A stretch of 35,766 nucleotides of DNA from Spirochaetales bacterium. Lineage in GTDB: Bacteria > Spirochaetota > Spirochaetia > Treponematales > UBA12059. The notes under the pieces are model-generated. The model was not told the origin of the DNA. It made no database searches and saw only the letters and a list, made by a program, of their open reading frames with translations. The position numbers and the translations under genes were made by a program. Location: the NCBI GenBank assembly GCA_016928955.1, contig JAFGJV010000019.1, forward strand, positions 1 to 35,766, written 5' to 3'. Position 1 is the stretch's first letter; each line of letters opens with the position of its first letter. This document shows positions 58-34,129 of the stretch, piece after piece.

Positions 58-1410
58 TTAGAAATACAGTTCATACTCCTGCGGTACGGGGGCGTTGTAC
101 ACATACTCGGCTTCCTTCCGTTTCAGGGCGGCCCAGCCGGACAGAAGCTCGTCAGGGAAGGCTGGCTTGAGGTAGGCCTTGTCCTTTTCCAGCCCGGTCA
201 GCACGTGGTACAGGCCCGTGGGGAAGGTGTTCTTGGGCGTTTCCTTGGTTGCGGCAAAACCCAGCTTGACAGGGTCCAGCTTGCGCTGCACGCCGTCCAG
301 GCCCGCCAGCAGCATGGCCGCCAGGAAGTAGTAGGTGTTGGCCGTGGCGTCGCCCGTGCGGAACTCTATGCGCGCCTCGCCCTTTTTGAGGTAGCCGGGT
401 ATGCGCACGGCAGCCGCGCGGCTGGCCTGGGCAAAGGTGGCCGATACCGGGGCCTCGTAGCCGGGCACCAGGCGCCGGTAGCTGTTGGTGCTGGGATTGG
501 ACCAGGCCAGGAGAGAGCCGGACAGGGCATGGGTCAGGATGCCCGCCGTGTACGCAAGGCCGGTATCCGACAGGCCATACAGGCCCTCGCCGGGGAACAC
601 GCTCTTGCCGCCCTTCTCCACGAACTGGTGCACGTGCATGCCGTTGCCCGCGATCTTGTACATGGGCTTGGGCATGAAGGTGACGTGGAGCCCAAGCTCG
701 TCGGCCACGTTGCGGATGATCCACTTGGACAGGACCACGGCGTCGGCGGCGCCGAGCAGGGATATGAAGTTGAGCTCGATTTCCAGCTGGGCGGCGCCCA
801 CCTCGTGGTGGTGGTACTTGACCGGTATGCCGGCGGCTTCCATGAGCTTGACGGCCTCATTGCGCAGGTAGCCATAGCGGTCGTCCGGGTGCACGCGGTG
901 GTAGCCCTTGGACAGGCCGAAGCGCGGCGCGTCCTCGTACTCGTCGCCTATGCCCTCCTCGGTACCCACAAAATAGTAGGAGTGGGCCGTGGTGGTTGAG
1001 TAGCTCACATCGTCAAACACGTAGAACTCGAGCTCGACGAGCATCTTGGCCTCGTCGCCCAGGCCCTGGGAGCGCATGTGCTCCACGGCCTTGCGCGCCA
1101 CCGTGCGGGGATACTGGTCAAAGAGCTCGCCGTCCGTGGTCCACACGTCACAGAACGCGTGCAGGATCTTGAAACCGTCCCGCTCCTCCACAAAGGCGGA
1201 GGACAGGTCGGGTATGGCGACCATGTCGCTCTTGTGCACCTGGGCGTAGCCAAAGTTGCTGGCATCAAAGCCTATGCCGCCCTTGAGCACCTTGTCGCTT
1301 ACATAGGAACGCGGCAGGGACACGGAGCGTATGGCTCCGTGGATGTCTACGACGAGCATGGACAGGTAATCGATTCCGGAGAGCTCCCCGTTGTACTTGG
1401 ACAGCTTCAT
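58..1410 (-). CDS. glnA: Glutamine synthetase type I
   Basis: 450 aa; motifs GIGFDAS, ELEFY, HHHEVG, TFMPKP, GNGMHVHQ, NPSTNSYRRLVPGYEAP, RIEFR; GGAG-like RBS (AAGAGGAG) upstream. Confidence 0.93.
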   Translation of the reverse strand: MKLSKYNGELSGIDYLSMLVVDIHGAIRSVSLPRSYVSDKVLKGGIGFDASNFGYAQVHKSDMVAIPDLSSAFVEERDGFKILHAFCDVWTTDGELFDQYPRTVARKAVEHMRSQGLGDEAKMLVELEFYVFDDVSYSTTTAHSYYFVGTEEGIGDEYEDAPRFGLSKGYHRVHPDDRYGYLRNEAVKLMEAAGIPVKYHHHEVGAAQLEIELNFISLLGAADAVVLSKWIIRNVADELGLHVTFMPKPMYKIAGNGMHVHQFVEKGGKSVFPGEGLYGLSDTGLAYTAGILTHALSGSLLAWSNPSTNSYRRLVPGYEAPVSATFAQASRAAAVRIPGYLKKGEARIEFRTGDATANTYYFLAAMLLAGLDGVQRKLDPVKLGFAATKETPKNTFPTGLYHVLTGLEKDKAYLKPAFPDELLSGWAALKRKEAEYVYNAPVPQEYELYF

Positions 1411-1465
1411 GACGACTCCTTAAAGGCGATGGTGGCGGGCCGACGATACGGCACGGCCGCAGCGT

Positions 1466-1495
1466 ATAGTAACGTCCTTGGGGAGCTTTATGCAA
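1466..1495 (-). promoter_or_regulatory. Candidate sigma70 promoter of glnA
   Basis: Minus strand TTGCAT (1495-1490)-N18-TACTAT (1471-1466). Confidence 0.45.
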
Positions 1496-1504
1496 GGGTT
1501 AAAG

Positions 1505-1539
1505 TTCATTTAATGATACGTCGTTTCATTTATTGATAC
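1505..1539. promoter_or_regulatory. Tandem 15-bp direct repeat, candidate transcription-factor sites upstream of glnA
   Basis: TTCATTTAATGATAC (1505-1519) and TTCATTTATTGATAC (1525-1539), 14/15 identical, 20-bp period, in an AT-rich patch. Confidence 0.55.
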
Positions 1540-1677
1540 AAAAAGATGTGCATCGAAGCTTTGATGTCGGGCGACGTAAGGCCATGAGGAGCATACAGCC
1601 AACCACGGAAGCTCGGAGAAACACTTAAAACAGTGTAGGCGGTTTTCTGCGAGATCCCTGGTCAGGAGGGCGGACGG

Positions 1678-2922
1678 CTACTCGTCCCCGAACAGGAAAC
1701 CGGCGGGGTTGCGTTCGAGCATGGCTGACTTGAGTTCCTGGTCCAGGCCGCTGGCCGTGAAGCCGGCCACGTAGTCCAGGTAGGACTGGCTTTTGGTCAG
1801 GTTGATCAGGAAGTCGCTGCCAAAGAGCAGGCGACGCCTGACCACGGCCTCCGCGGAGTCGGACAAGCCGGCCATGAAGGAGCCCAGCTCGTTCCAGTAG
1901 GCGCGCTCCGTGCCGTTGAACGCCACGTCGGCATACACCCCGGGCAGGCGCTCCATGTAGCCCACGATGGTGCGCGACCAGCGCTCGCGCGTGTCTCCCC
2001 TGGCCGCCGGCAGGTAGCGTCGCCCAAAATGGGCAAAGTTTACGGACAGCTCAGGGTAATCCGTGAACACCCGCGACCAGCGCTCGGGGGCCGTATACAG
2101 CTCGGCCAGCTCGTGGGCTATGACGCGGTAGCCCTGGTCGTCGCAATGGACCGTGATGGGTATGCCGCGGCGCTCGCAATACGAGTAGAGGACGCGCACG
2201 GCGTCCCTGGCGCGCCTGTCCTCCGGCCAGGGGTCAAAGCCCAGGGGCGGATAGAGCTTGACGCCGGCAAAGGCGTTGCGGGGCGGACGCAGGGGATTGC
2301 CCCGCCAGCGGCGCGCGTCGCGGAAGGCGGCCAGCTGGGCCTGGCGTCCTTTGGCGTAGGAACGAAAGTACCTGTCCAGGACCTCTTCCGTGCGGCCGGG
2401 GCCCAGCCAGGTGGGATCCATGCCAAGGAAGGGCCGTATGACCAGGCGGCCCCAGGGCCGTTCGCGGCGGTAAGCGGACACTCCTGCCAGGATCTCGCGC
2501 ACGGCCTCCTCCAGGGGTTTTCGCGGCTGGGCGGGATAGCGGCAGGCCGCTGGAGCGTCCACGGGCCGGGAAAAATCCATGGCCTGGGGGCATACCAGCC
2601 ACCTGTCATCTCGGGATCGGCCGACTAATGCGCGCGCGGCCACGGCCAGCTCTGGATCGGCGGGTGGCCCGAAAGACCCCGCCAGGTCATCCTCCATGAG
2701 CATGAACTGGCCGGCGGGATCGTTGTCGGCCACCGACAGGAAATTCCTGGCGGCGTCGCCGCCGCGCCTGAGCAGGGAAAAAAGGAGGAACGTAGGCGCG
2801 GCCACCTGCGACATGAGGTAGTCCATCTTGCGGCGGGCCAGGGCGTCCAGGAAGGGGCCCAGGGCCGGCCGGGCCAGGGTCATCACGTGGCAATGGACGT
2901 CAAAACTCAGCCTGCTAGCCAT
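1678..2922 (-). CDS. Amidohydrolase superfamily protein (Amidohydro_2-like TIM barrel)
   Basis: FDVHCH, GVKLYP, ITVHCD, FAHFG and FGSDF metal motifs; start moved to ATG 2922 (MASRLSFD), preceded by AGGAG. Confidence 0.85.
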   Translation of the reverse strand: MASRLSFDVHCHVMTLARPALGPFLDALARRKMDYLMSQVAAPTFLLFSLLRRGGDAARNFLSVADNDPAGQFMLMEDDLAGSFGPPADPELAVAARALVGRSRDDRWLVCPQAMDFSRPVDAPAACRYPAQPRKPLEEAVREILAGVSAYRRERPWGRLVIRPFLGMDPTWLGPGRTEEVLDRYFRSYAKGRQAQLAAFRDARRWRGNPLRPPRNAFAGVKLYPPLGFDPWPEDRRARDAVRVLYSYCERRGIPITVHCDDQGYRVIAHELAELYTAPERWSRVFTDYPELSVNFAHFGRRYLPAARGDTRERWSRTIVGYMERLPGVYADVAFNGTERAYWNELGSFMAGLSDSAEAVVRRRLLFGSDFLINLTKSQSYLDYVAGFTASGLDQELKSAMLERNPAGFLFGDE

Positions 2923-19679: not shown

Positions 19680-20939
19680 TCAACGCTTGGCGGAGCTACG
19701 GATCGTGTCGCCGCGGTAGATGAACAAACTGAACCCGGCGCTCAAGAGGGATAAGACCGCCACAAACGGCCACACGGCCGCCGATCCCCGTGCGTCGGAG
19801 ACGGCGCCGGCCACCAGCGGCCCCATGGCGCCGCCAGCCACGTGACAGACGGATATGAAGGAATTGATACGCGCCCGGAATTCCGGCGGGGAACGTTCCG
19901 CTATAAAGGCGTTGCCGTTGGTCGCGCCTAGGATTTCGCCCACGGTCCATAAGGCGGTCATGCCCAGTATGGGTAGGGCGGACAAAGACAGGGCGTAGCC
20001 GCCAAACCCGGCCGCGTAGAAGAGATAGGACAGGGAAACGGCAGCCAGGCTGGGAAGCCGCCTGGACAAAAGGGTCACCAGCGATGTGAGCAGTACCACG
20101 GTCAGCCCGTTGGTGGTCATGGCCGAGCCGAACAGCTTGGGCCCGAGTTCCGGCCCAAGCCCGTCTTTGAGGTACACGGGCAGGGCAAAGCTGTGCTGGG
20201 CGTAAATGAAGGAGCCGAGCACGCTGGACAGGCCGTACAGCACCAGGATGGGATGGCGCCTGAGCGCGTCCACCAGGGCGGACTTTCTTGAAAGGGGACG
20301 GGCTACGATCGTCGCCTCAGCGGCCCGCTCAGCGACGGCCGCCTGGGCGCCTCCAGGCGCCGCGCCCGGCCGCCGTACGAATAGGCCGACCACGCCTGCC
20401 GCTATGAACAGGGCCACCGCGTTGCCGACAAACAGGGCGCGCGGGGCGGCGTCAAACAGCAGTCCGGCTATCAGCGGCCCGATCGAGAACCCTATGTTGT
20501 TGCCCCAGTAGATCAGGGCAAAGGCTTCCTTGGTCCGCTCGGGCGGGGCCCTGTCCGCGACCAGGGCGTTGATCAGGGGCCAGGTACCCTGAAGCGTCAC
20601 CAGGGCGGCGGCCATCAGAAAGGGCGTAACGGGCGTAAAGCCGACCAGGGCGCACACCAGGAAGATCCCGGCCGTGGCGGCCTGGAGCCAGCGCAGGACG
20701 CCTGCCCGTTCCAGCCTGTCGCCCAGGTGGCCGCCGGCGAACAAGCCCACGGCGCCGGCAACCGTAACGCCCGATACGAAGGCGCCCGCGGCGCCGTCGG
20801 CGTAGCCCAGCTTGATGGTGAGGATCATGGTCAAAAACGGCCCCACAAAGCTGCCCGCGGATACCACAAGTCGCACCACAAAGAGGGCGTATATCTCCGG
20901 GGGCAGTTTTGCCGTGGGAAGCGCGCTGGCGCGGCTCAT
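19680..20939 (-). CDS. MFS transporter
   Basis: About 12 TMs; motif A-like GGHLGDRLER; NIGFSIGPLIAG; WTVGEIL. Confidence 0.9.
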   Translation of the reverse strand: MSRASALPTAKLPPEIYALFVVRLVVSAGSFVGPFLTMILTIKLGYADGAAGAFVSGVTVAGAVGLFAGGHLGDRLERAGVLRWLQAATAGIFLVCALVGFTPVTPFLMAAALVTLQGTWPLINALVADRAPPERTKEAFALIYWGNNIGFSIGPLIAGLLFDAAPRALFVGNAVALFIAAGVVGLFVRRPGAAPGGAQAAVAERAAEATIVARPLSRKSALVDALRRHPILVLYGLSSVLGSFIYAQHSFALPVYLKDGLGPELGPKLFGSAMTTNGLTVVLLTSLVTLLSRRLPSLAAVSLSYLFYAAGFGGYALSLSALPILGMTALWTVGEILGATNGNAFIAERSPPEFRARINSFISVCHVAGGAMGPLVAGAVSDARGSAAVWPFVAVLSLLSAGFSLFIYRGDTIRSSAKR

Positions 20940-20984
20940 GTCTGGTATCCCTTCAAGCGGCGCGGACCTCAGCCGGTCCGCGCC

Positions 20985-21470
20985 TCACGCGCTGTACGCC
21001 TTGCCCCGCAGGGAGTCGATGTCCAGCCTGAGTATGGTAACCGCGTCGTAGGACGCGTCGTTCTTGATGTTGCGCTCCAGTATCGGCTGCGGATCCTTCT
21101 CAAGGTGCCCAAGCAGGGTCAGGAGGGCGTGCTTCTTCTCGGCCAGGTCCGTGACCACGGCCATCCGGCCGCGTATGACCAGGGACGCGTAGTCATGGTC
21201 GCACTTGCCATCCAGATACCCGCGGTCCTGGATGACGGTAGCGCATACCCGGTCGTTGGCCCTGATGAAGTCGAGCTTGTCGCCGTGATTGGAGCTGTGA
21301 AAATACACGTTCCCGCTATCCCGGTCGTAGCCATAGCTCAGCGTCACGATGTACGGCTCGTCGACCCTGGCCAGGGCCAGGGTCATGTATTTCCCGGCTT
21401 TGAGGATGCCGGTCAGCTGTTCCTGGTCCAGGATTTCCTTGTCCCGCCTGCGGGGATGGTACGACGCCAT
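20985..21470 (-). CDS. Pyridoxamine 5'-phosphate oxidase-like / NimA-type flavin-binding protein
   Basis: RRRDKEI, PYIVTLSYGY, YFHS..GDKLDFI, YASLVIRG; GGAGGA RBS before ATG 21470. Confidence 0.85.
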   Translation of the reverse strand: MASYHPRRRDKEILDQEQLTGILKAGKYMTLALARVDEPYIVTLSYGYDRDSGNVYFHSSNHGDKLDFIRANDRVCATVIQDRGYLDGKCDHDYASLVIRGRMAVVTDLAEKKHALLTLLGHLEKDPQPILERNIKNDASYDAVTILRLDIDSLRGKAYSA

Positions 21471-21577
21471 GACTATCCTCCAACGCTGCGCTAGTGGGCG
21501 CAGTATACCATACACGGCCTCAAGTCCAGCGGCTTCGGACAGCGCCGTCGCCGCTTCCCCTGCCGTTCACGCCCGGC

Positions 21578-22378
21578 CTACACGCGGGTATCCATGCGGT
21601 TGCCGGATTCGTAGCGCTTGAGGCCCAGGCCAAAGAACGCCCTGGCCAGTACCGCGTACACGATGGCCACGCCCCAGAGGGCGGGCACCAGGGGCCAGTC
21701 CATGGAACGGAACACGCGCAGCGGCACAAAGGCCACAAAGCCCGAAGGTACCAACGAATACAGCACCCAGCGGAGACCCTTCCCGAACACGCCCTCCGGA
21801 TACAGCGAAAAAGACAACAGGAACTCGCTCAGGGCGCCCGCTATGCCCTGGGAATTGCCCATGAAGAAGGCCAGGCTTTCGGCCATGGCAAAGGCCGACG
21901 CGAATATCACGGCCGCCGGCACCGCCAGGGCGCAGAACAGGGCCAGGCGCTCAAGGCTCAGGCCGGGGAGGAGACCCAGGACCACAAAGCCGTACAGAAG
22001 GTCGCCCCAGGCCCCCACGTCGGTCTTGGACAAAAGGACATTGAGGAGCGCGTCTTTGGGCTGGAGCAGGTACACGTCCAGGGATCCTTCCATGATGATC
22101 CTGCCCAGCTGGCGCACGTTGCCGGCCAGGATGTGGGCCAGCCCAAAAGCCGTGGACACCAGGCCCCACACGAACATCACGTCCTGGAAACCGTAGCCGC
22201 CCACGGCCCCCGTCCGGCCTATCAGCACGGCCCAGAAGGCGGCAAAAGCCGCGTTGTTCAGCATCATCCCAAAGGTCTGCACCAGGAAGTTCACCCGATA
22301 CTCGATCACGCTCTTCACGTTGGCCGCAAAAGCCGCGGCCATGAAGCGGCCATACGCCGCCAGTCTCCATTTCCTCAT
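21578..22378 (-). CDS. ABC-2 type permease (ABC2_membrane_6 / COG3694-like)
   Basis: EYRVNF, GSLDVYLLQP, SLYPEGVF, GLKRYESG. Confidence 0.88.
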   Translation of the reverse strand: MRKWRLAAYGRFMAAAFAANVKSVIEYRVNFLVQTFGMMLNNAAFAAFWAVLIGRTGAVGGYGFQDVMFVWGLVSTAFGLAHILAGNVRQLGRIIMEGSLDVYLLQPKDALLNVLLSKTDVGAWGDLLYGFVVLGLLPGLSLERLALFCALAVPAAVIFASAFAMAESLAFFMGNSQGIAGALSEFLLSFSLYPEGVFGKGLRWVLYSLVPSGFVAFVPLRVFRSMDWPLVPALWGVAIVYAVLARAFFGLGLKRYESGNRMDTRV

Positions 22379-22380
22379 GA

Positions 22381-23187
22381 TCAGCCTCCGTTGAGGGCCA
22401 CGCGCCGGGAACTCAGGGAGAAGACGGCGCGGGCCAGGAGCACGGCAAACGCCACCCAGGCCAGCTGCCTGGCTATCAGGGACAGCGCGTCCGCCGGGCT
22501 AAAGGCGACGAACACCCGCGCGGGCGCCCAGGACAGGTACGGGAAGGGCGTCCATAAAGCCGCCGCCGCCACCGTGTCCGGCAGGAACTCGATGGGCACC
22601 AGCGTGCCGACTACCAGCACGAGCTTCTGGTACACCCAGTAGAACGCGTCGTTTTCCTCCAGCCAGAAGGCGGTCAGCGATATGCTGAAATGGAGAAGAA
22701 AGTTGAGCGACCCGGCCAGGAGAAGCGACACGGCCAGGAGCCCTCCCCGCAGGATTTCCGCCCCAAGGCCGCCGCCCGCGGACGGCGGCGTGCCCACCAG
22801 CAGGAAACCCACCGCCAGGCCCTCGGCCAAAATGACGGCGGCGTCCGCAAGGCTGCCTCCCACCCGCTCGGCGTAGTTGTAGGCCACAAAGTCGTACGGC
22901 CGGCCCAGCTGGTACGCCACCTGCCCGCTTTTCACGTCGCGCGACAGGCCCCAGAAATAGCGGCCAAAGCCAAAGCTCGTGATCTCGGCCACAATGAAAT
23001 ACCACACGGCCATGGATTGGGTGTAGCCGGCTATCTCAGAGCGTCCGGCGTAAGCCCCGGCCCATACCCGGGAGAAGATGAACACAAAGAGACCGTAGGT
23101 CAGCATGGACGCCGTGAAATTCCCGAGGTACATGGTGCGTTCCCGCAGAGACGTGGACGCGGCCACGGAATAGAGCCTGGCCCTCAT
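22381..23187 (-). CDS. ABC-2 type permease (COG4587-like)
   Basis: DVKSGQVAYQLGRPY, LTAFWLE, GTLVPIEFLP, C-terminal NGG; ATGA-type overlap with the ATPase. Confidence 0.88.
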   Translation of the reverse strand: MRARLYSVAASTSLRERTMYLGNFTASMLTYGLFVFIFSRVWAGAYAGRSEIAGYTQSMAVWYFIVAEITSFGFGRYFWGLSRDVKSGQVAYQLGRPYDFVAYNYAERVGGSLADAAVILAEGLAVGFLLVGTPPSAGGGLGAEILRGGLLAVSLLLAGSLNFLLHFSISLTAFWLEENDAFYWVYQKLVLVVGTLVPIEFLPDTVAAAALWTPFPYLSWAPARVFVAFSPADALSLIARQLAWVAFAVLLARAVFSLSSRRVALNGG

Positions 23188-24200
23188 GCCGAGCCTCCCC
23201 GCGTCACGGCCGCCGCCTCCGCGCCCGAGCGCGCCGCGTATATCTGCTCGATCACGTTCTCAAGCGGCTCGTCCTCAACCGTGATGTCCACCAGCTCGCC
23301 GCGCTCGGCCAGGGCGCGCACCACGTCGCGCAGGGCATGGCGGTTGGTGTCCACCTCGTAGCGCGCACTCTGCTCGGTGCGCTTGAGAGGCGACAGGCCG
23401 GGCAGGTCCATGGACGTGGGACGGGCGTAGCGCACACCAACGTGCTTGCGGGACAGGGCCCGATGCTTGAGCGTCTTCATGGACTCGTCCACCACCACCT
23501 CGCCGTGGTGGATGATCACGGCCCGCTTGCACACCTTTTCTATGTCGCCCATATCGTGGCTGGTGAGGAAGACGGTCACGCCGTCGCGCTTGTTGAGCTC
23601 CTCTATCAGCCGGCGGATCTCCTTGCGGGCCACCACGTCCAGCCCTATGGTCGGCTCGTCCAGAAAGAGCACCCGGGGCGCGTGTATGAGACTGGCGGCT
23701 ATCTCGCAGCGTATGCGCTGCCCAAGCGACAACTTGCGCACGGGCACGTCCATGAGCTCGGCAAGGCCAAAGCGCTCCACAAGCGCGCCGGTGCGCTCCC
23801 GCAGGAGCTTCGGTTCCACCTCGTACACCGCGCCAAGCAGCCTGAACGAGTCGGCCGGCGGCAGGTGGAACCACAGCTGGCTCTTCTGCCCGAACACCGA
23901 GCCTATGGACCAGGCCAGGCGCTTGCGCTCCCTGGCTGGATCAAGGCCAAGCACGCGGGCTCCGCCGCCGGAAGGCGTGAGTATGCCGGTCAGCATCTTG
24001 ATGGTTGTGGACTTGCCCGCCCCGTTGGGCCCAAGAAAGGCGACCACTTCGCCTTCATCCACCGAAAAATTCACGCCCTTGACGGCGTCGACGATCCGGC
24101 GCTCGGGCCGCACCAGAGCGCGCAGGGCGGCAAAGCGCCCCTGGGGCCGCACGCGGAGAATAAAACGCTTGGACAGGTTTTCGGCCACGATGGCGGCCAT
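23184..24200 (-). CDS. ABC transporter ATP-binding protein (NatA/COG4586-like)
   Basis: GPNGAGKS, VFGQKSQLW, LSLGQRIR, LDEPTIGLD, TSHDMGDIE; GGAGG RBS. Confidence 0.93.
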   Translation of the reverse strand: MAAIVAENLSKRFILRVRPQGRFAALRALVRPERRIVDAVKGVNFSVDEGEVVAFLGPNGAGKSTTIKMLTGILTPSGGGARVLGLDPARERKRLAWSIGSVFGQKSQLWFHLPPADSFRLLGAVYEVEPKLLRERTGALVERFGLAELMDVPVRKLSLGQRIRCEIAASLIHAPRVLFLDEPTIGLDVVARKEIRRLIEELNKRDGVTVFLTSHDMGDIEKVCKRAVIIHHGEVVVDESMKTLKHRALSRKHVGVRYARPTSMDLPGLSPLKRTEQSARYEVDTNRHALRDVVRALAERGELVDITVEDEPLENVIEQIYAARSGAEAAAVTRGGSA

Positions 24201-24260
24201 GGGGGACCTCCGAGTCGACGGGACGGCGCCGCCAGAGCGGCAGACGGGTCCCGTGGTCGA

Positions 24261-24388
24261 TCGAGACTCCGTCCTCGGGCTTTTGTCCCGTGGGTGTCGC
24301 GGCTGTCACGCGGCCGCCGGCGCCGCTCGGTCTCGGCCACCGGCAGCGTCTTCACGCTGGCCGGGCGGAACCCTAGGCGCCCTCTCGA
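24261..24388 (-). ncRNA. ykkC-yxkD family riboswitch aptamer, subtype 2-like variant (ligand unresolved)
   Basis: Minus strand UCGAGAG-GGCGCC-UAGGGUUCCG-[hairpin]-GACCGAGC-GGCGCC-G-[GCGGC..GCCGC]-GACACCCA-CGGG-ACAAAAG-CCCG-AGGACGGAG-UCUCGA; the ykkC landmarks are present in order in the 5' UTR of the ABC operon. Confidence 0.85.
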
Positions 24389-24402
24389 AGGTAGATGCAC
24401 TG

Positions 24403-24431
24403 TTTGTAGCTGACCCTCGCTCGGCGGTCAA
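24403..24431 (-). promoter_or_regulatory. Candidate sigma70 promoter for the riboswitch-ABC transcript
   Basis: TTGACC (24431-24426)-N17-TACAAA (24408-24403); predicts a start near 24396, just before the aptamer. Confidence 0.55.
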
Positions 24432-24537
24432 GTGGATGTACCGTTACTGCGAGGAGCATCGCACGCGCCCGCCGGGCCGGGAATGGTTCACGCCCGGCAT
24501 CTTGCGCGTTGGGCGTACCGAGTCTATCCTTATAGCC

Positions 24538-25917
24538 GTGGTAACCTTACCAGGCGAGCTGGACAGCGACGTCATCCCCTACAGGCGCCCCGCCGTTATC
24601 TTTGGCGTGTTGACCACCTGCCTGCTCTATGTCCTGTCCGCGACCGCTGCCCATTTCTGGATGGCCCACCTGGGCGACATGGAGCGCGTCGAGGTGTCCC
24701 AGGAAGCGTCGCGCCTCCGCGCCCGCCTTGAGAACGTGCTCAACGAAAAGCTGTCCATGGAACGTGGCCTGGTGGCGTACATAGAAACCAACCCGGACAT
24801 GACCACCGACGAATTCAACGCCTATACCTCCGCCCTGATCATGGACGACCCCGTAATACGCAACATATCGGTGATCAAGGGCACGGTCATAGGCTTTGCG
24901 TTTCCGTACCAGGGGAACGAAGCTGCCATAGGCAAGGACCTTTCCCTCATACCCGAACAGGCGCCCACCCTCAGGCTGGCCATGGAAACCAGAAAGCCCA
25001 TCCTCTCCGGCCCCCTGGACCTGGTCCAGGGCGGGCGCGGCATCATCACGCGCATGGGCATCTTTCCCATCGGCGAACTGGGCCCTGAATACTGGGGCCA
25101 GGCCAGCGTGGTTCTGAACGAGGACGAGGTATACCGCCAGGCGGGTTTTTATGACGCCACGGCCATACGGCTGGCCATCCGCAAAGTAGACGAACGCGGC
25201 GTTGACGGGCCAGTGTTCCTGGGAGATGAGTCCGTCTTCCTGGACGAGCATATTGCCCTTGACGTGGTGGTGCCGGGCGGCTCGTGGCGAATGGCGGCCG
25301 TGCCGGCCGAGGGATGGCCGCGCTACACGGTCTATGTCGTGGCCAGCGTGGTCATCCTCCTGGGCCTGTCCACCGCGTTGGGAGTCGTCATTTACCTGCT
25401 GGTGTCCGCGCGCGGGCGGCTGGCCATCATGGCCTACCGCGACCAGCTGACGGGCATGCCAAACCGCCTCCTGTTCTGGGACCGCCTGTCGGTAACGCTG
25501 CCCCAGGCCGAGCGCGACGGCCGTCGCGTGGCCCTGCTCATGCTGGACATGGACGGCTTTAAGGAAGTGAACGACACCCTTGGACACGCCGCCGGGGACG
25601 CGGTGCTGGTGGAGGCTGCCGCCCGCCTGAGCGCGGCCTTCCGGCGCGGCGACACGGTGGCCCGGCTGGGAGGCGACGAGTTCGCGGTGATAGCCCCGTT
25701 GTGCGGCGACGCGGGGGCGCGTATCGTGGCCGCAAAGGCCGAGTCCTGCTTCACGGAGGCCTTCAGAGCGGCCGGAAGCATCAAGCTGTCCGCCAGCGTC
25801 GGCATGGCTGTCTTCCCGGACGACACCCACGACCCTGAGGAGCTCCTGGCCATGGCCGACCGGGCCATGTACAAGGTCAAGATAAAACCGGCTAGCGCTT
25901 CCAGAACGAACGGGTAA
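24538..25917 (+). CDS. CHASE-domain diguanylate cyclase
   Basis: TM-CHASE (SGPLDLVQGGRGII, YWGQASVV)-TM; DQLTGMPNR, DMDGFKEVNDTLGHAAGD, RRGD I-site and RLGGDEF; start approximate (GTG 24538); 3' end overlaps the convergent trkH by 26 bp. Confidence 0.9.
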   Translation: MVTLPGELDSDVIPYRRPAVIFGVLTTCLLYVLSATAAHFWMAHLGDMERVEVSQEASRLRARLENVLNEKLSMERGLVAYIETNPDMTTDEFNAYTSALIMDDPVIRNISVIKGTVIGFAFPYQGNEAAIGKDLSLIPEQAPTLRLAMETRKPILSGPLDLVQGGRGIITRMGIFPIGELGPEYWGQASVVLNEDEVYRQAGFYDATAIRLAIRKVDERGVDGPVFLGDESVFLDEHIALDVVVPGGSWRMAAVPAEGWPRYTVYVVASVVILLGLSTALGVVIYLLVSARGRLAIMAYRDQLTGMPNRLLFWDRLSVTLPQAERDGRRVALLMLDMDGFKEVNDTLGHAAGDAVLVEAAARLSAAFRRGDTVARLGGDEFAVIAPLCGDAGARIVAAKAESCFTEAFRAAGSIKLSASVGMAVFPDDTHDPEELLAMADRAMYKVKIKPASASRTNG

Positions 25918-27349
25918 AGAGCACCAGCACCGTGTATATCTCCAGGCGCCCCAGGAGCATCACAAAGGACAGCCAGGCCGTCACGTAATCGGGAAAAAAG
26001 TCGTAGTTGAACACCGGTCCCACCAGGGCAAAGCCCGGGCCTATGTTGCCCAGCGTGGCAAGGGTGGCGGTGATGCTCGTCTGTATGTCGTAACCGCCCG
26101 ACGCAACCACCAGGGTGCTCACGATAATGGCGGCCGCGTACAGGAAAACCATGGCCGCTATGTCGTATACCACGTTTTTCTTAAGGTAGTGGCCGTCCAC
26201 ATACACGCCGTATATGCCCCGTGGGTTGAGCAGGTAGCGCATTTCGGACAGGCCCATCTTGAACAGGGTGACGATGCGGCCCACCTTGATTCCGCCGCCT
26301 GTGGACCCCGCGCAGCCTCCAATGAACATGAGAGCGAACAGGATGGCCTGGGACAGGGCCGGCCAGGCTAGGTAGTCCGCGGTGACAAACCCGGTGGTGG
26401 TCAGGATGGACGACGTCTGGAACGCCGAATAGCGCAGGGCCTGCCCAAAGCCCTGGTAGGCGCCTCCGCGCATCAGATCCAGGGCCATCACGCCGCTGGA
26501 CGCCACGAATATCAGGATATAGGTGACAAATTCGCTGTTCTTGAACACGGCCTTGAAGTCCCCGCGGAGCATGCGCCAGTGGAGGGAAAAATTCATGCCG
26601 GCCAGGACCATGAACACGGTGACAACCCAGTCAACGTAACCCGAGCCAAAGGCGCCCACGGACTGGTTCCGCGTGGAAAAACCGCCGGTGGCCATGGTCG
26701 CGAACGAGTGGGTTACCGCGTCCAGGAGGTCCAGGCCACCCAGCATGAGCAGGGCCGTCTCAAGCACTGTCAGTCCTAGATAGATGAGCCACAGAATCTT
26801 GGCGGTTTCTGAGATGCGCGGGGTGAATTTGTCCACCTGGGGACCGGGCGCCTCGGCTTCCATGAGGGCCCTGCCGCCCATGCCCAGGAGGGGAAACACG
26901 GCCACCGTCAGCACGACGATGCCCATGCCGCCCAGCCAGTGCGTGGTAGCGCGCCACAGGAGTATGGAGTCGGGAAGGCTCTCTATGTCGGATAGCACGG
27001 TCGCGCCCGTGGTGGTCAGTCCGGATATGGTCTCGAACAGGGCGTCCACAAAGGACGGGATGGAACCCGACAGCACAAACGGCAAGGCGCCAAGCACTCC
27101 TGACAGGGTCCAGCCCAGGGTGACAAAAAGGTACCCGGTTTTGGTGGACAAGGCAGGCTTATCGCGCTTGCGGCCCGTGGCCAGGACCAGTACCAGAAAA
27201 CAGAGGCCGGCCGCCACGGGCAGGGCAAAGGCATGTACGGCTGCCGCCCCCTCTCCGAGCGCCAGACCCACCGCCATGCAGGCCGCCATGAAGCCCGACA
27301 CGATGGACAAAAGCAGGGCCAGGGCCCTGGCGAGCGGCCTAGGCTCCAC
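25892..27349 (-). CDS. trkH: Trk potassium uptake membrane protein TrkH
   Basis: FETISGLTTTGAT, WLGGMGIVV, ATGGFS, TTTGF, GGCAGSTGGGIK, LGNIGPG, MLLGRLEI; GTG start overlapping the trkA end. Confidence 0.94.
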   Translation of the reverse strand: MEPRPLARALALLLSIVSGFMAACMAVGLALGEGAAAVHAFALPVAAGLCFLVLVLATGRKRDKPALSTKTGYLFVTLGWTLSGVLGALPFVLSGSIPSFVDALFETISGLTTTGATVLSDIESLPDSILLWRATTHWLGGMGIVVLTVAVFPLLGMGGRALMEAEAPGPQVDKFTPRISETAKILWLIYLGLTVLETALLMLGGLDLLDAVTHSFATMATGGFSTRNQSVGAFGSGYVDWVVTVFMVLAGMNFSLHWRMLRGDFKAVFKNSEFVTYILIFVASSGVMALDLMRGGAYQGFGQALRYSAFQTSSILTTTGFVTADYLAWPALSQAILFALMFIGGCAGSTGGGIKVGRIVTLFKMGLSEMRYLLNPRGIYGVYVDGHYLKKNVVYDIAAMVFLYAAAIIVSTLVVASGGYDIQTSITATLATLGNIGPGFALVGPVFNYDFFPDYVTAWLSFVMLLGRLEIYTVLVLFTRSFWKR

Positions 27350-28748
27350 CCCGCCCTCCAAAGATCCTCTCAAGGGCGCCTATGCCGCTTTTGCGTACCA
27401 CAAAGGCAACGGTGTCGCCGCTGTCTATGACCGTGCGGCCGCTCGGTACCGTCAGCTCCCCGGATTTTAGCATAAAGGCCACCAGGGAGCCCTTGGGCAA
27501 GGACAGGTCCATGAGCTTTTTGCCGGCCGCTGGCGACGAGTCCTCCACGGCCAGCTCCACGATTTCCACGTCGTCCTCGAAAAAGTCATGGATGGTGCGT
27601 ATGTGGGCGCGGCGGATCAGCTCCAGCGCAAAGGCGGCAACCACGTTTTTTATGTTCACCACGGCGTCGAGCTCAAGGACGCCGCCCAGGGGGGCGTAGC
27701 GGTCATTGATGGTAATGGCAATGCCCTTGGCCGCGCCCAGCGACTTGGCCAGACGGGCGGTCAGCATGTTGTAGGTCTGGGATTCCGTGGCGCACACCAC
27801 CAGATCTGCCCTGTCAGCCCCGGCCTGTTCCAGCACCCCGAATTCCGAGCTGTCGCCGTTGACCACCTCGATGCCCTGGAAAACCCTGGACAGGCGCTTG
27901 CCCGCCTCCCGGGATGAATCCAGCACGGTGATGGACCTTCTGGACCTGAACAAGCCCTTGAGGATGCGGCCCAGGCCCCGGGCCCGCTCAAGCTCCCGCT
28001 CCTGGAGCCTCTGCACCAGATGCTCGGTTACGCGGGTGGCGCCCACGATAAGCACCTTGCGGGTAGCCTGACGCACGGCTGCCACAGGACCAGACACGCC
28101 GTCCAGGTCCTCGGGCGTGCCCAGGATGTCGAGCATGTCGTCACTGGCCACGCGGTAGTCGCCGGACGGCACGGAAAGCGTTCCGTTCTTGACCACGGCC
28201 GCCACCAGGAACTCCCTGCCTGACTGGCCGCGGAGCTCCTGCAAGGTCCGGCCGGAAAAGCCGGGCACCGCGCCCGCGTCCAGGTAGCGCAGTTGCAGCT
28301 GTCCGTCATGCAGGGGAACCACGTCCTCGGCAAAGCCGGCGTCCACGATGCGGGCCACGGCCTCCGCTGTGGCCATGGCCGGATTCACGATAACATCCAG
28401 GCCAAAGGCCCGCCTTTGCGCCTCTGACAGGGTCGAGTAAAAGGGATTCGCAACGCGGGCCACGGTCCGGACAGACTTGTTTTCCGCGGCCACCAGCCCG
28501 CAGGCCACAATGTTCACCTCATCTGAGCCCGTCAGCGCAAGGAACCACTCGGCGTCGGCTATCTTGGCCTTGCGGAGCACTTCCGGGCGGGAACCGTCGT
28601 CATGCATGACCAGGCAGTCCAGCTCGTTGGAGGCCACCCGGGCCGTTTCCGTGTCCTTTTCGATCAGGACAACATCGCGCCGCTCTTCTATCAGCTCCCT
28701 GGCAATGTGAATGCCAAGCATGCCGGCACCCACGATGATCACTCGCAT
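27339..28748 (-). CDS. trkA: Trk potassium uptake regulatory subunit TrkA (two RCK units)
   Basis: VIIVGAGMLG, LTGSDEVNIVAC, duplicated RCK_N/RCK_C layout, adjacent to trkH. Confidence 0.9.
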   Translation of the reverse strand: MRVIIVGAGMLGIHIARELIEERRDVVLIEKDTETARVASNELDCLVMHDDGSRPEVLRKAKIADAEWFLALTGSDEVNIVACGLVAAENKSVRTVARVANPFYSTLSEAQRRAFGLDVIVNPAMATAEAVARIVDAGFAEDVVPLHDGQLQLRYLDAGAVPGFSGRTLQELRGQSGREFLVAAVVKNGTLSVPSGDYRVASDDMLDILGTPEDLDGVSGPVAAVRQATRKVLIVGATRVTEHLVQRLQERELERARGLGRILKGLFRSRRSITVLDSSREAGKRLSRVFQGIEVVNGDSSEFGVLEQAGADRADLVVCATESQTYNMLTARLAKSLGAAKGIAITINDRYAPLGGVLELDAVVNIKNVVAAFALELIRRAHIRTIHDFFEDDVEIVELAVEDSSPAAGKKLMDLSLPKGSLVAFMLKSGELTVPSGRTVIDSGDTVAFVVRKSGIGALERIFGGRGGA

Positions 28749-34011: not shown

Positions 34012-34085
34012 CCTGGCGCGACCGGGCTCTCGGCTTTATCTTTCCGCGCTAAGCGCGGAAAGGATACCGCCTCGATCCCTGGCGC
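34012..34085. repeat. REP-like palindromic element
   Basis: CTTTCCGCGC-taa-GCGCGGAAAG core (34040-34062) in a longer imperfect stem, bracketed by a direct repeat CCTGGCGC (34012-34019, 34078-34085). Confidence 0.5.
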
Positions 34086-34129
34086 TTGTTGGCCAGCTGG
34101 CCCATTCTCTTGTAGCCCCGGTCCAAACG

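Follow-up and report, generated by a model that had tools for sequence, protein, structure and literature searches.

What does the leader RNA in front of an uncharacterised ABC-2 transporter operon sense in a spirochaete, and how would it act on the genes behind it? This question is raised by a 35,766-nucleotide contig of a Spirochaetales bacterium (the window), on the minus strand of which a first-pass annotation had recognised a ykkC-variant RNA of uncertain ligand. All of the ykkC landmarks that it listed were found at their places on that strand, and we assign the element at 24261..24388 (-) to the natA lineage of ykkC subtype 2a aptamers, with helices P0 to P3 around a four-way junction, from its match to Rfam family RF00442, an alignment of homologues and our own covariance model R1. 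Four of the proposed helices stood, namely P0 (24388-24383/24266-24261), P1 (24381-24376/24324-24319), the P1 extension (24359-24344) and P2 (24317-24313/24303-24299), all (-). P3, which carries an AAAAG loop (24273..24293 (-)), had to be redrawn: it is longer than the suggested CGGG/CCCG and reads CC-A-CGGG/CCCG-A-GG with an A·A mismatch, in a register fixed by alignment counts; 31 of the 60 alignment rows have a standard pair in place of the A·A. The annotation had named a covariance search with RF00442 as a check, and this gave a mixed outcome: the leader was matched over its full length (29.9 bits, E 0.0015 in a search of 501 bases), with a score under the gathering score of 63. Consistently, Rfam at gathering level did not match the ykkC leader anywhere in the window, and its sole match there was a Flavo-1 RNA (34016-34088 (-), 44.4 bits against a gathering score of 42), an observation in its own right for a spirochaete genome. 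The gathering-level miss is uninformative, because the experimentally validated C101 switch also falls below the RF00442 gathering score (46 bits). Single-sequence folding of the leader was not significant (z -1.15 and -1.77). R1, which had the window RNA in its training set, scored that RNA at 107.8 bits and found it as a single copy in the genome.

Comparison with homologous leaders, likewise proposed in the annotation, supported the structure. The ATPases closest to that of the window (60-82% identical) belong to Spirochaetota/Treponematales genomes, and the next tier (49-60%) lies mostly in Bacillota. We examined 110 loci, in 82 of which a first pattern found both ends of the motif; a refined pattern yielded 60 distinct aptamers, 35 in a spirochaete group (ATPase identity at least 60%, with L067 set apart as Bacillota) and 25 from Bacillota. 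In their alignment 91.9% of the cells of the five helices are paired, two-sided changes occur in 18 of 26 pairs, and the covariation score is 0.420, compared with 0.178 after shuffling (none of 500 shuffles reached 0.420) and 0.07-0.132 for slid alignments; these controls are lenient, as the sequences are related and the structure was taken from the window. P0, a trait of the subtype-2 variants, is 97.3% paired over the 60 aptamers, with two-sided change in three of its five pairs. The equivalents of A5/G6, G48/C49 and ACAC are invariant in all 60, ACAC partly by selection since it belonged to the extraction pattern.

The RNA follows the operon closely. Among the leaders of close-relative orthologues with upstream DNA (L005-L032), 25 of 28 hold the complete motif, and the three others are cut by a contig end (L019), lack the 3' half (L024) or are diverged (L030). 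When 31 genomes were searched both ways, the RNA was present in 12/12 with an ATPase of at least 60% identity and in 0/19 without one. Starting from the RNA instead, a pattern search of metagenomes gave 42 matches, of which 35 stand before the ATPase (34 at 60% identity or above, one at 41.5%); four end too early to judge and three precede other genes. The RNA was found in 13 of 41 genomes of the order, 12 times natA-type and once guanidine-I-like, and in at least 2 of 151 genomes of the phylum, where R1 scored 22 candidates per genome and the negatives are weak. Could the leader nevertheless be a decayed relic that binds no ligand? Its low Rfam score would fit, as would the decayed or diverged copies at L024 and L030/L060 and the spirochaete ATPases that have no detectable RNA (L058, L072, L093, L099). 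Against this, the pocket bases are invariant and the helices covary, in contrast to freely changing P1b, P2 and spacer sequences, and we regard a relic as hardly credible.

Several loci found along the way deserve mention for themselves. At L024 (568-715) the 5' half of a decayed aptamer runs directly into the ribosome site, with intact copies in genus mates, and the aptamers of L030, L060 and L061 are diverged, with an altered P3 loop and a G after ACAC (46 bits), and represent possible further pocket variants. The 41.5% match, L153, places an RNA of the same lineage (1402-1537 (+), 99 bits) before a more distant ABC ATPase (1605-2435 (+)) and may mark a change of the transporter under control. 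L158 (RNA at 1499-1602 (-)), L143, L145 and L161 combine a spirochaete-type tail with a U-tract terminator and stand before other genes. In L158 the gene behind the RNA encodes a GNAT acetyltransferase, and one of the aminoglycoside 3-N-acetyltransferase family lies further downstream; in L143 and L145 the frames after the RNA are broken. This suggests that the sub-lineage also controls stress or detoxification genes. The guanidine-I-like RNA of the same order (L183, 1501-1626) precedes a gene whose product we take to resemble a urea-carboxylase-associated protein.

The operon itself comprises a natA-type/drrA-like ABC ATPase of 338 aa (23184..24200 (-); PF00005; TIGR01188 at 233.5 bits against a cut-off of 312), a first ABC-2 permease of 268 aa that overlaps the ATPase stop (22381..23187 (-); PF06182) and a second of 266 aa (21578..22378 (-); PF06182). 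Both permeases are present in 70 of the 71 loci with enough DNA. Such operons presumably also go by the label 'viologen exporter family'. The ATPase search gave generic ABC matches alone with respect to cargo, a search for a solved structure of permease 2 found none, and the literature on COG4586/COG4587 and EvrA yielded no function. Neighbouring genes were surveyed separately: upstream lie genes for potassium uptake (TrkA/TrkH) and for a CHASE-GGDEF protein (25892-28748 (-), 23446-25917 (+)), and downstream genes for a PNPOx-like flavin-binding protein and an MFS protein (19680-21515 (-)); over 80 loci TrkH recurs nine times, GGDEF ten, MFS eleven and PNPOx not at all. The annotation had named NatA-type operons among the genes linked to ppGpp-type RNAs, and this was borne out: natA + COG3694 + COG4587 is one of three subtype 2a gene contexts, covering 12 of 105 RNAs, in the original description of ppGpp riboswitches (PMC6003355), and the operon of the window matches this published context; the label 'NatA' rests on ATPase similarity in that source.

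The closest known systems are C101 (Clostridiales bacterium oral taxon 876 F0540, 'Cba') and C94 (Clostridium sp. BL8), described in PMC9881157, PMC6003355 and PMC10687018. C101 is a validated pppGpp/ppGpp switch that binds pppGpp with a Kd of 119 nM, both RNAs prefer pppGpp (PMC9881157), the natA RNA of BL8 binds ppGpp (PMC6003355), and C101 acts as a terminator switch with ppGpp-dependent readthrough (PMC10687018). They share with the window the orthologous three-gene operon, P0 with GAGA/UCUC, a linker ending in GAG and all named contacts; the ATPase and permeases of the window are 50/30/46% identical to those under C101 control (L109, the C101 locus), and the 3' half aligns to C101 without gaps (ACAC + 6 + 8-nt loop + 13 nt). 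They differ in host phylum, Bacillota as opposed to Spirochaetota, and P1b and P2 are longer and G+C-rich in the window. The canonical 2a RNAs of T. oceani ilvE and S. acidophilus (6DMC) also share the P0-P3 junction, A5/G6, G48/C49, ACAC and a non-G at position 96, but have an NARG linker of 4-5 nt and control branched-chain amino acid and glutamate genes.

We then compared the pocket base by base. According to PMC9881157, ppGpp is contacted by P0, A5, G6, a bulged G with the C that follows it, ACAC and purines of the linker. The features (a) to (g) described there are all present in the window (A24383, G24382, G24326, C24325 and 24297-24294), and all seven ppGpp-contact positions are kept. 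The last base of P0, an A, and the unpaired G after it (24382..24383 (-)) are the A5/G6 equivalents, with roles as 5'-phosphate contacts taken from PMC9881157 and PMC6031431. The G-C of the AGCG junction (24325..24326 (-)) corresponds to G48/C49, where C marks subtype 2, guanidine-I RNAs have A and subtype 2c rows G; in ACAC (24294..24297 (-)), C24296 is predicted to pair with the guanine of the ligand. Ligand choice between PRPP and ppGpp is decided at G96, and G96A alone switches the ligand (PMC6031431). This position lies 21 nt after C75, a count that we checked on L118, where a PRPP-type RNA precedes a purine permease gene (PF00860) and the count falls in G95-G96-G97, and on the PRPP rows of Table S2, which also have G. 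In the window the G96-equivalent is A24275, inside P3 and of the ppGpp type, and across the 35 spirochaete-group aptamers it is A in 25, C in seven, U in two and G in one, where it is paired with C.

These bases bear on the reading of the leader as a PRPP switch (subtype 2b) or a guanidine-I switch, which share much of the fold. The 2b riboswitch has the same scaffold, P0, AGCG and ACACC, and guanidine-I RNAs (RF00442) the P1-P3 core and loop; R1 even scores the PRPP-type RNA at 71 bits and guanidine-I RNAs at 27-43 bits. Yet the 2b RNAs carry G96, a tail ending in UAGG and purine genes (PMC6031431), and guanidine-I RNAs lack P0 and have an AGAG junction, ACACGG, an S-turn pocket and SMR or urea carboxylase genes, with AGAG, ACACGG and no P0 also seen in the guanidine-I examples from the same Clostridia (among L114-L119). 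The window has A at the G96-equivalent, CC and not GG after ACAC, AGCG and not AGAG, and a P0, and purine, SugE or urea-carboxylase genes do not occur downstream. Either identity is already contradicted by the pocket and is barely conceivable, and the annotation was right to place the RNA in the ykkC family outside guanidine-I. Two further subtypes were considered and rejected. Subtypes 2c and 2d control NUDIX/HAD and EamA/TauE genes, respectively (PMC7266159, PMC7609027). For 2c (ADP/CDP), two NUDIX rows, which are examples rather than a consensus, read GAGGG and GCACC, compared with GAGCG, ACACC and an ABC operon in the window, and the orphan 2d is set apart by its EamA or TauE gene context, which this leader does not share.

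The annotation had also held that the 3' tail was unlike those of ppGpp RNAs and might signal another ligand. This found no support. The first part of the supposedly odd tail is P3, and just ACGGAG (24272-24267 (-)) is the P3-P0 linker; counted from the P3 loop, the GGACGAG-UCUC tail of C94 and C101 and the GGACGGAG-UCUC region of the window are equally long (13 nt each). Moreover, C102, one of the 105 candidates of the published subtype 2a list (PMC9881157, Table S1), is letter-identical by eye to the RNA of L137, which precedes an ATPase at 65% identity, so that the spirochaete lineage already lies inside the published subtype 2a set. C102 shares with the window the first 21 letters but one, apart from one register of P1b, the CC-A-NGGG form of P3 and the GGAAGGAG-UCUCGA tail, and differs in its linker (AAGGAG, compared with ACGGAG); its row in Table S1 carries no gene, species or binding result. 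The other alternative offered, a ppGpp switch in an unusual host, agrees with the spirochaete lineage and the preserved 2a pocket.

What does set the spirochaete aptamers apart lies at the floor of the pocket. A24272 stands opposite C24294, the last C of ACAC, where C101 (linker ACGAG) has a C-G pair; the facing base is A in 34 of 35 spirochaete aptamers and G in 19 of 20 Bacillota aptamers of equal length. With this C·A the spirochaete linker has six unpaired nucleotides, whereas tested binders have purine-rich (A)NARG linkers of 4-5 nt (PMC9881157). In total length and in its last three bases, GAG, the linker of the window is as in C101, but with those six nucleotides unpaired; C101, whose ACGAG itself departs from NARG, binds. 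The C·A floor with its six-base linker is the one real ground for altered specificity. It has been seen that near-identical natA aptamers differ in their choice between ppGpp and pppGpp, and that one of five tested, C105, bound neither ligand (PMC9881157). By analogy with C94 and C101, the chance that the window RNA would prefer pppGpp is about even.

A more radical reading is that the spirochaete branch was retuned to another guanine nucleotide (pGpp, GDP/GTP or GMP/XMP), with the C·A floor and the GGAG linker reshaping the 3'-phosphate site. The C·A is lineage-wide and involves the very C through which the 3' phosphate is bound; single changes such as G96A switch the ligand of ykkC RNAs, and natA aptamers already diverge in their ppGpp/pppGpp choice. 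On the other hand, invariance extends over G24326, which contacts the 3' phosphate, the M2-site C and ACAC in full, and the operon is that of validated (p)ppGpp binders. An XMP/GMP-binding ykkC subclass was reportedly described in a 2025 paper, with G at the G96-type position and a place before GMP synthesis genes; our literature search did not return this subclass, and both traits are absent here. We therefore consider retuning improbable. The leader is very probably a real ykkC subtype 2a switch with (p)ppGpp as its predicted ligand. A candidate source of (p)ppGpp is encoded in the same genome, namely a RelA/SpoT protein of 681 aa with HD, synthetase and TGS domains, the synthetase activity being predicted, along with a RelA_SpoT-TPR protein of 414 aa.

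How would binding be read out? A predicted promoter precedes the aptamer, with a -35 hexamer TTGACC (24426..24431 (-)) and, after a 17-nt spacer, a -10 hexamer TACAAA (24403..24408 (-)) that would place the start near 24396-24398. All spirochaete-group leaders but one (34 of 35) carry TTGAC at a distance of 38-46 nt upstream of P0; the exception, L020, has a second, nearer copy. This near-constant element marks a conserved promoter, with a start site deduced from it. A generic scan of the leader returned neither a promoter, missing TTGACC, nor a minus-strand terminator. RNA-labelled sequencing runs, available as contigs only, cover the promoter region and the opposite-strand gene evenly, and since genes on both strands are covered alike these runs do not show transcription. 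Before the -35 of 20 of the 35 spirochaete leaders lies an A+T-rich, partly palindromic motif ending in AGAAAC or AGTAAC (24443-24450 (-) in the window; relatives L013-L064). Scanning the genome with a matrix built from it gave 69 sites; several sit immediately ahead of TTGAC, and one lies in front of what we take, from its translation, to be a DnaA-like gene. As an operator of this operon it was rejected, given that it scores at many promoters genome-wide; it is possibly a general promoter element or the site of a global regulator of the family.

Downstream of P0 the two groups part. Within the first 60 nt past P0, an 8-nt stretch with at least six T occurs in 3/35 spirochaete but 25/25 Bacillota leaders. 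The anti-P0 strand (24242..24252 (-)), which in folding pairs with the linker and the 3' strand of P0 to form a terminator-like hairpin without a U-tract, is kept in both groups, and the tail pairs downstream with a probability above 0.5 in 33 of 34 leaders; in the window the anti-P0 pairing probability is 0.88, compared with 0.44 when the spacer is shuffled. A second segment, 24232-24240 (-), has complementarity to the aptamer's P1 junction, with similar CGCUCG stretches in several relatives, and could be a further anti-aptamer strand. The Shine-Dalgarno sequence GGAGG lies 6 nt before the ATG (24207..24211 (-)), and the 5' strand ACCUUCGAG (24384..24392 (-)), which overlaps P0, is predicted to pair with it when P0 is open (probability 0.99 in the window).

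We estimated ribosome-site access with two folding models. In the first, which omits the 5' end and from which L017 was dropped for lack of a recognisable start, freeing the 3' half of the aptamer for other pairings made the site more than 1 kcal/mol harder to open in 28 of 34 spirochaete leaders and in 2 of 25 from Bacillota, two groups that also differ in G+C content. The effect exceeded the shuffled-spacer mean in 31 of 34 spirochaete leaders (mean 4.6 vs 0.1 kcal/mol) and ran in the opposite direction in two, L057 and L059; in the window itself this model left access unchanged (7.7 vs 7.7, with 11 of 20 shuffles as high). A second model, devised after the first and carrying no shuffle control, includes the 5' end. 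It puts the opening cost in the window at 8.0 kcal/mol when the RNA folds freely and 3.8 with the aptamer fixed, and shows the effect in 22 of the 33 spirochaete leaders and four of the 24 from Bacillota, two long leaders being left out. Pairing of the 5' P0 strand with the Shine-Dalgarno sequence is used in just 2 of the 33 spirochaete leaders, and the predicted folds of L005, L006 and L063 have the Shine-Dalgarno site bound directly by the 3' strand of P0; in these models, species appear to mask the ribosome site by differing pairings.

Transcriptional control by the same ligand would be the obvious counterpart, with the anti-P0 hairpin pausing or terminating the polymerase with the help of Rho or without a U-tract. 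The hairpin is conserved (33/34), Rho is encoded in the genome, three of the 35 spirochaete leaders do have a U-rich run, and C101 is a terminator switch. This reading has to contend with the lack of a U-tract in 32 of 35 leaders, the predicted direct Shine-Dalgarno pairing in L005, L006 and L063 and the shuffled-spacer control, and we judge it rather unlikely. A translational platform, in which the switch turns expression ON through ribosome access and not by averting early termination, is probable on the folding models, and in its missing intrinsic terminator and predicted Shine-Dalgarno masking the window departs from C101. Termination by Rho could follow a block in translation or take its place.

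Under the translational model, in the absence of ligand the anti-P0 strand (24252-24242 (-)) would sequester the 3' strand of P0 together with the linker; the 5' strand of P0, now released, would pair with the Shine-Dalgarno sequence and block translation of the ATPase, after which Rho could end the transcript. By extension from the structures of relatives, an incoming ligand would pair its guanine with C24296, have its phosphates held by A24383, G24382, G24326, C24294 and linker purines, and clamp P0; in the folding models the anti-P0 strand would then pair downstream and the ribosome site would open. Closing P0 costs 9.3 kcal/mol in the window in the folding model, so that some of this energy has to come from tertiary contacts or from the timing of folding during transcription. 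A (p)ppGpp-class ligand combined with ON logic is, in our estimate, highly probable. It is decidedly unlikely that the spirochaete branch forms a distinct ykkC class that is wired to translation initiation, its C·A floor and GGAG linker having moved specificity off ppGpp and onto a different guanine nucleotide (strict pppGpp, pGpp or a non-alarmone). If it did, riboswitches would gain a new ligand, and Spirochaetota, for which our searches turned up no direct reading of alarmone signals by RNA, would have one.

Taken together, pocket identity, conservation, covariation, operon linkage and the absence of the U-tract are established by sequence comparison. The class, its gene context and one sequence of the same lineage (C102) are already in print. 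A literature search with few subscription papers within reach found neither a Spirochaetota host range nor a translational platform for ppGpp riboswitches, and 'spiroch' and 'treponem' do not occur in the supplement text of PMC9881157 and PMC6003355. As far as sequences and folding predictions reach, what is new is the spread across a family of free-living spirochaetes, the loss of the U-tract with predicted masking of the Shine-Dalgarno site, and the lineage-wide C·A. The transfer direction is left undecided by the ATPase tree (83 rows, quick search): a support-100 branch splits the main spirochaete group from Bacillota, and three further spirochaete proteins nest within Bacillota, with both outgroup rows on very long branches. 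The annotation had expected the ligand to point to the function of the transporter, an expectation that proved weak: an alarmone switch tells when the transporter is made and does not identify its cargo.

At the strength given above, a family of free-living Spirochaetota would join Bacillota as hosts of (p)ppGpp riboswitches. The 35 natural variants, set apart from the best-studied natA switch by their expression platform and by a single pair at the floor of the pocket, serve two questions, namely how pppGpp is chosen over ppGpp and whether the class can gate translation. Alarmone control of an uncharacterised transporter would also be kept across two phyla, which argues that the link is functional.
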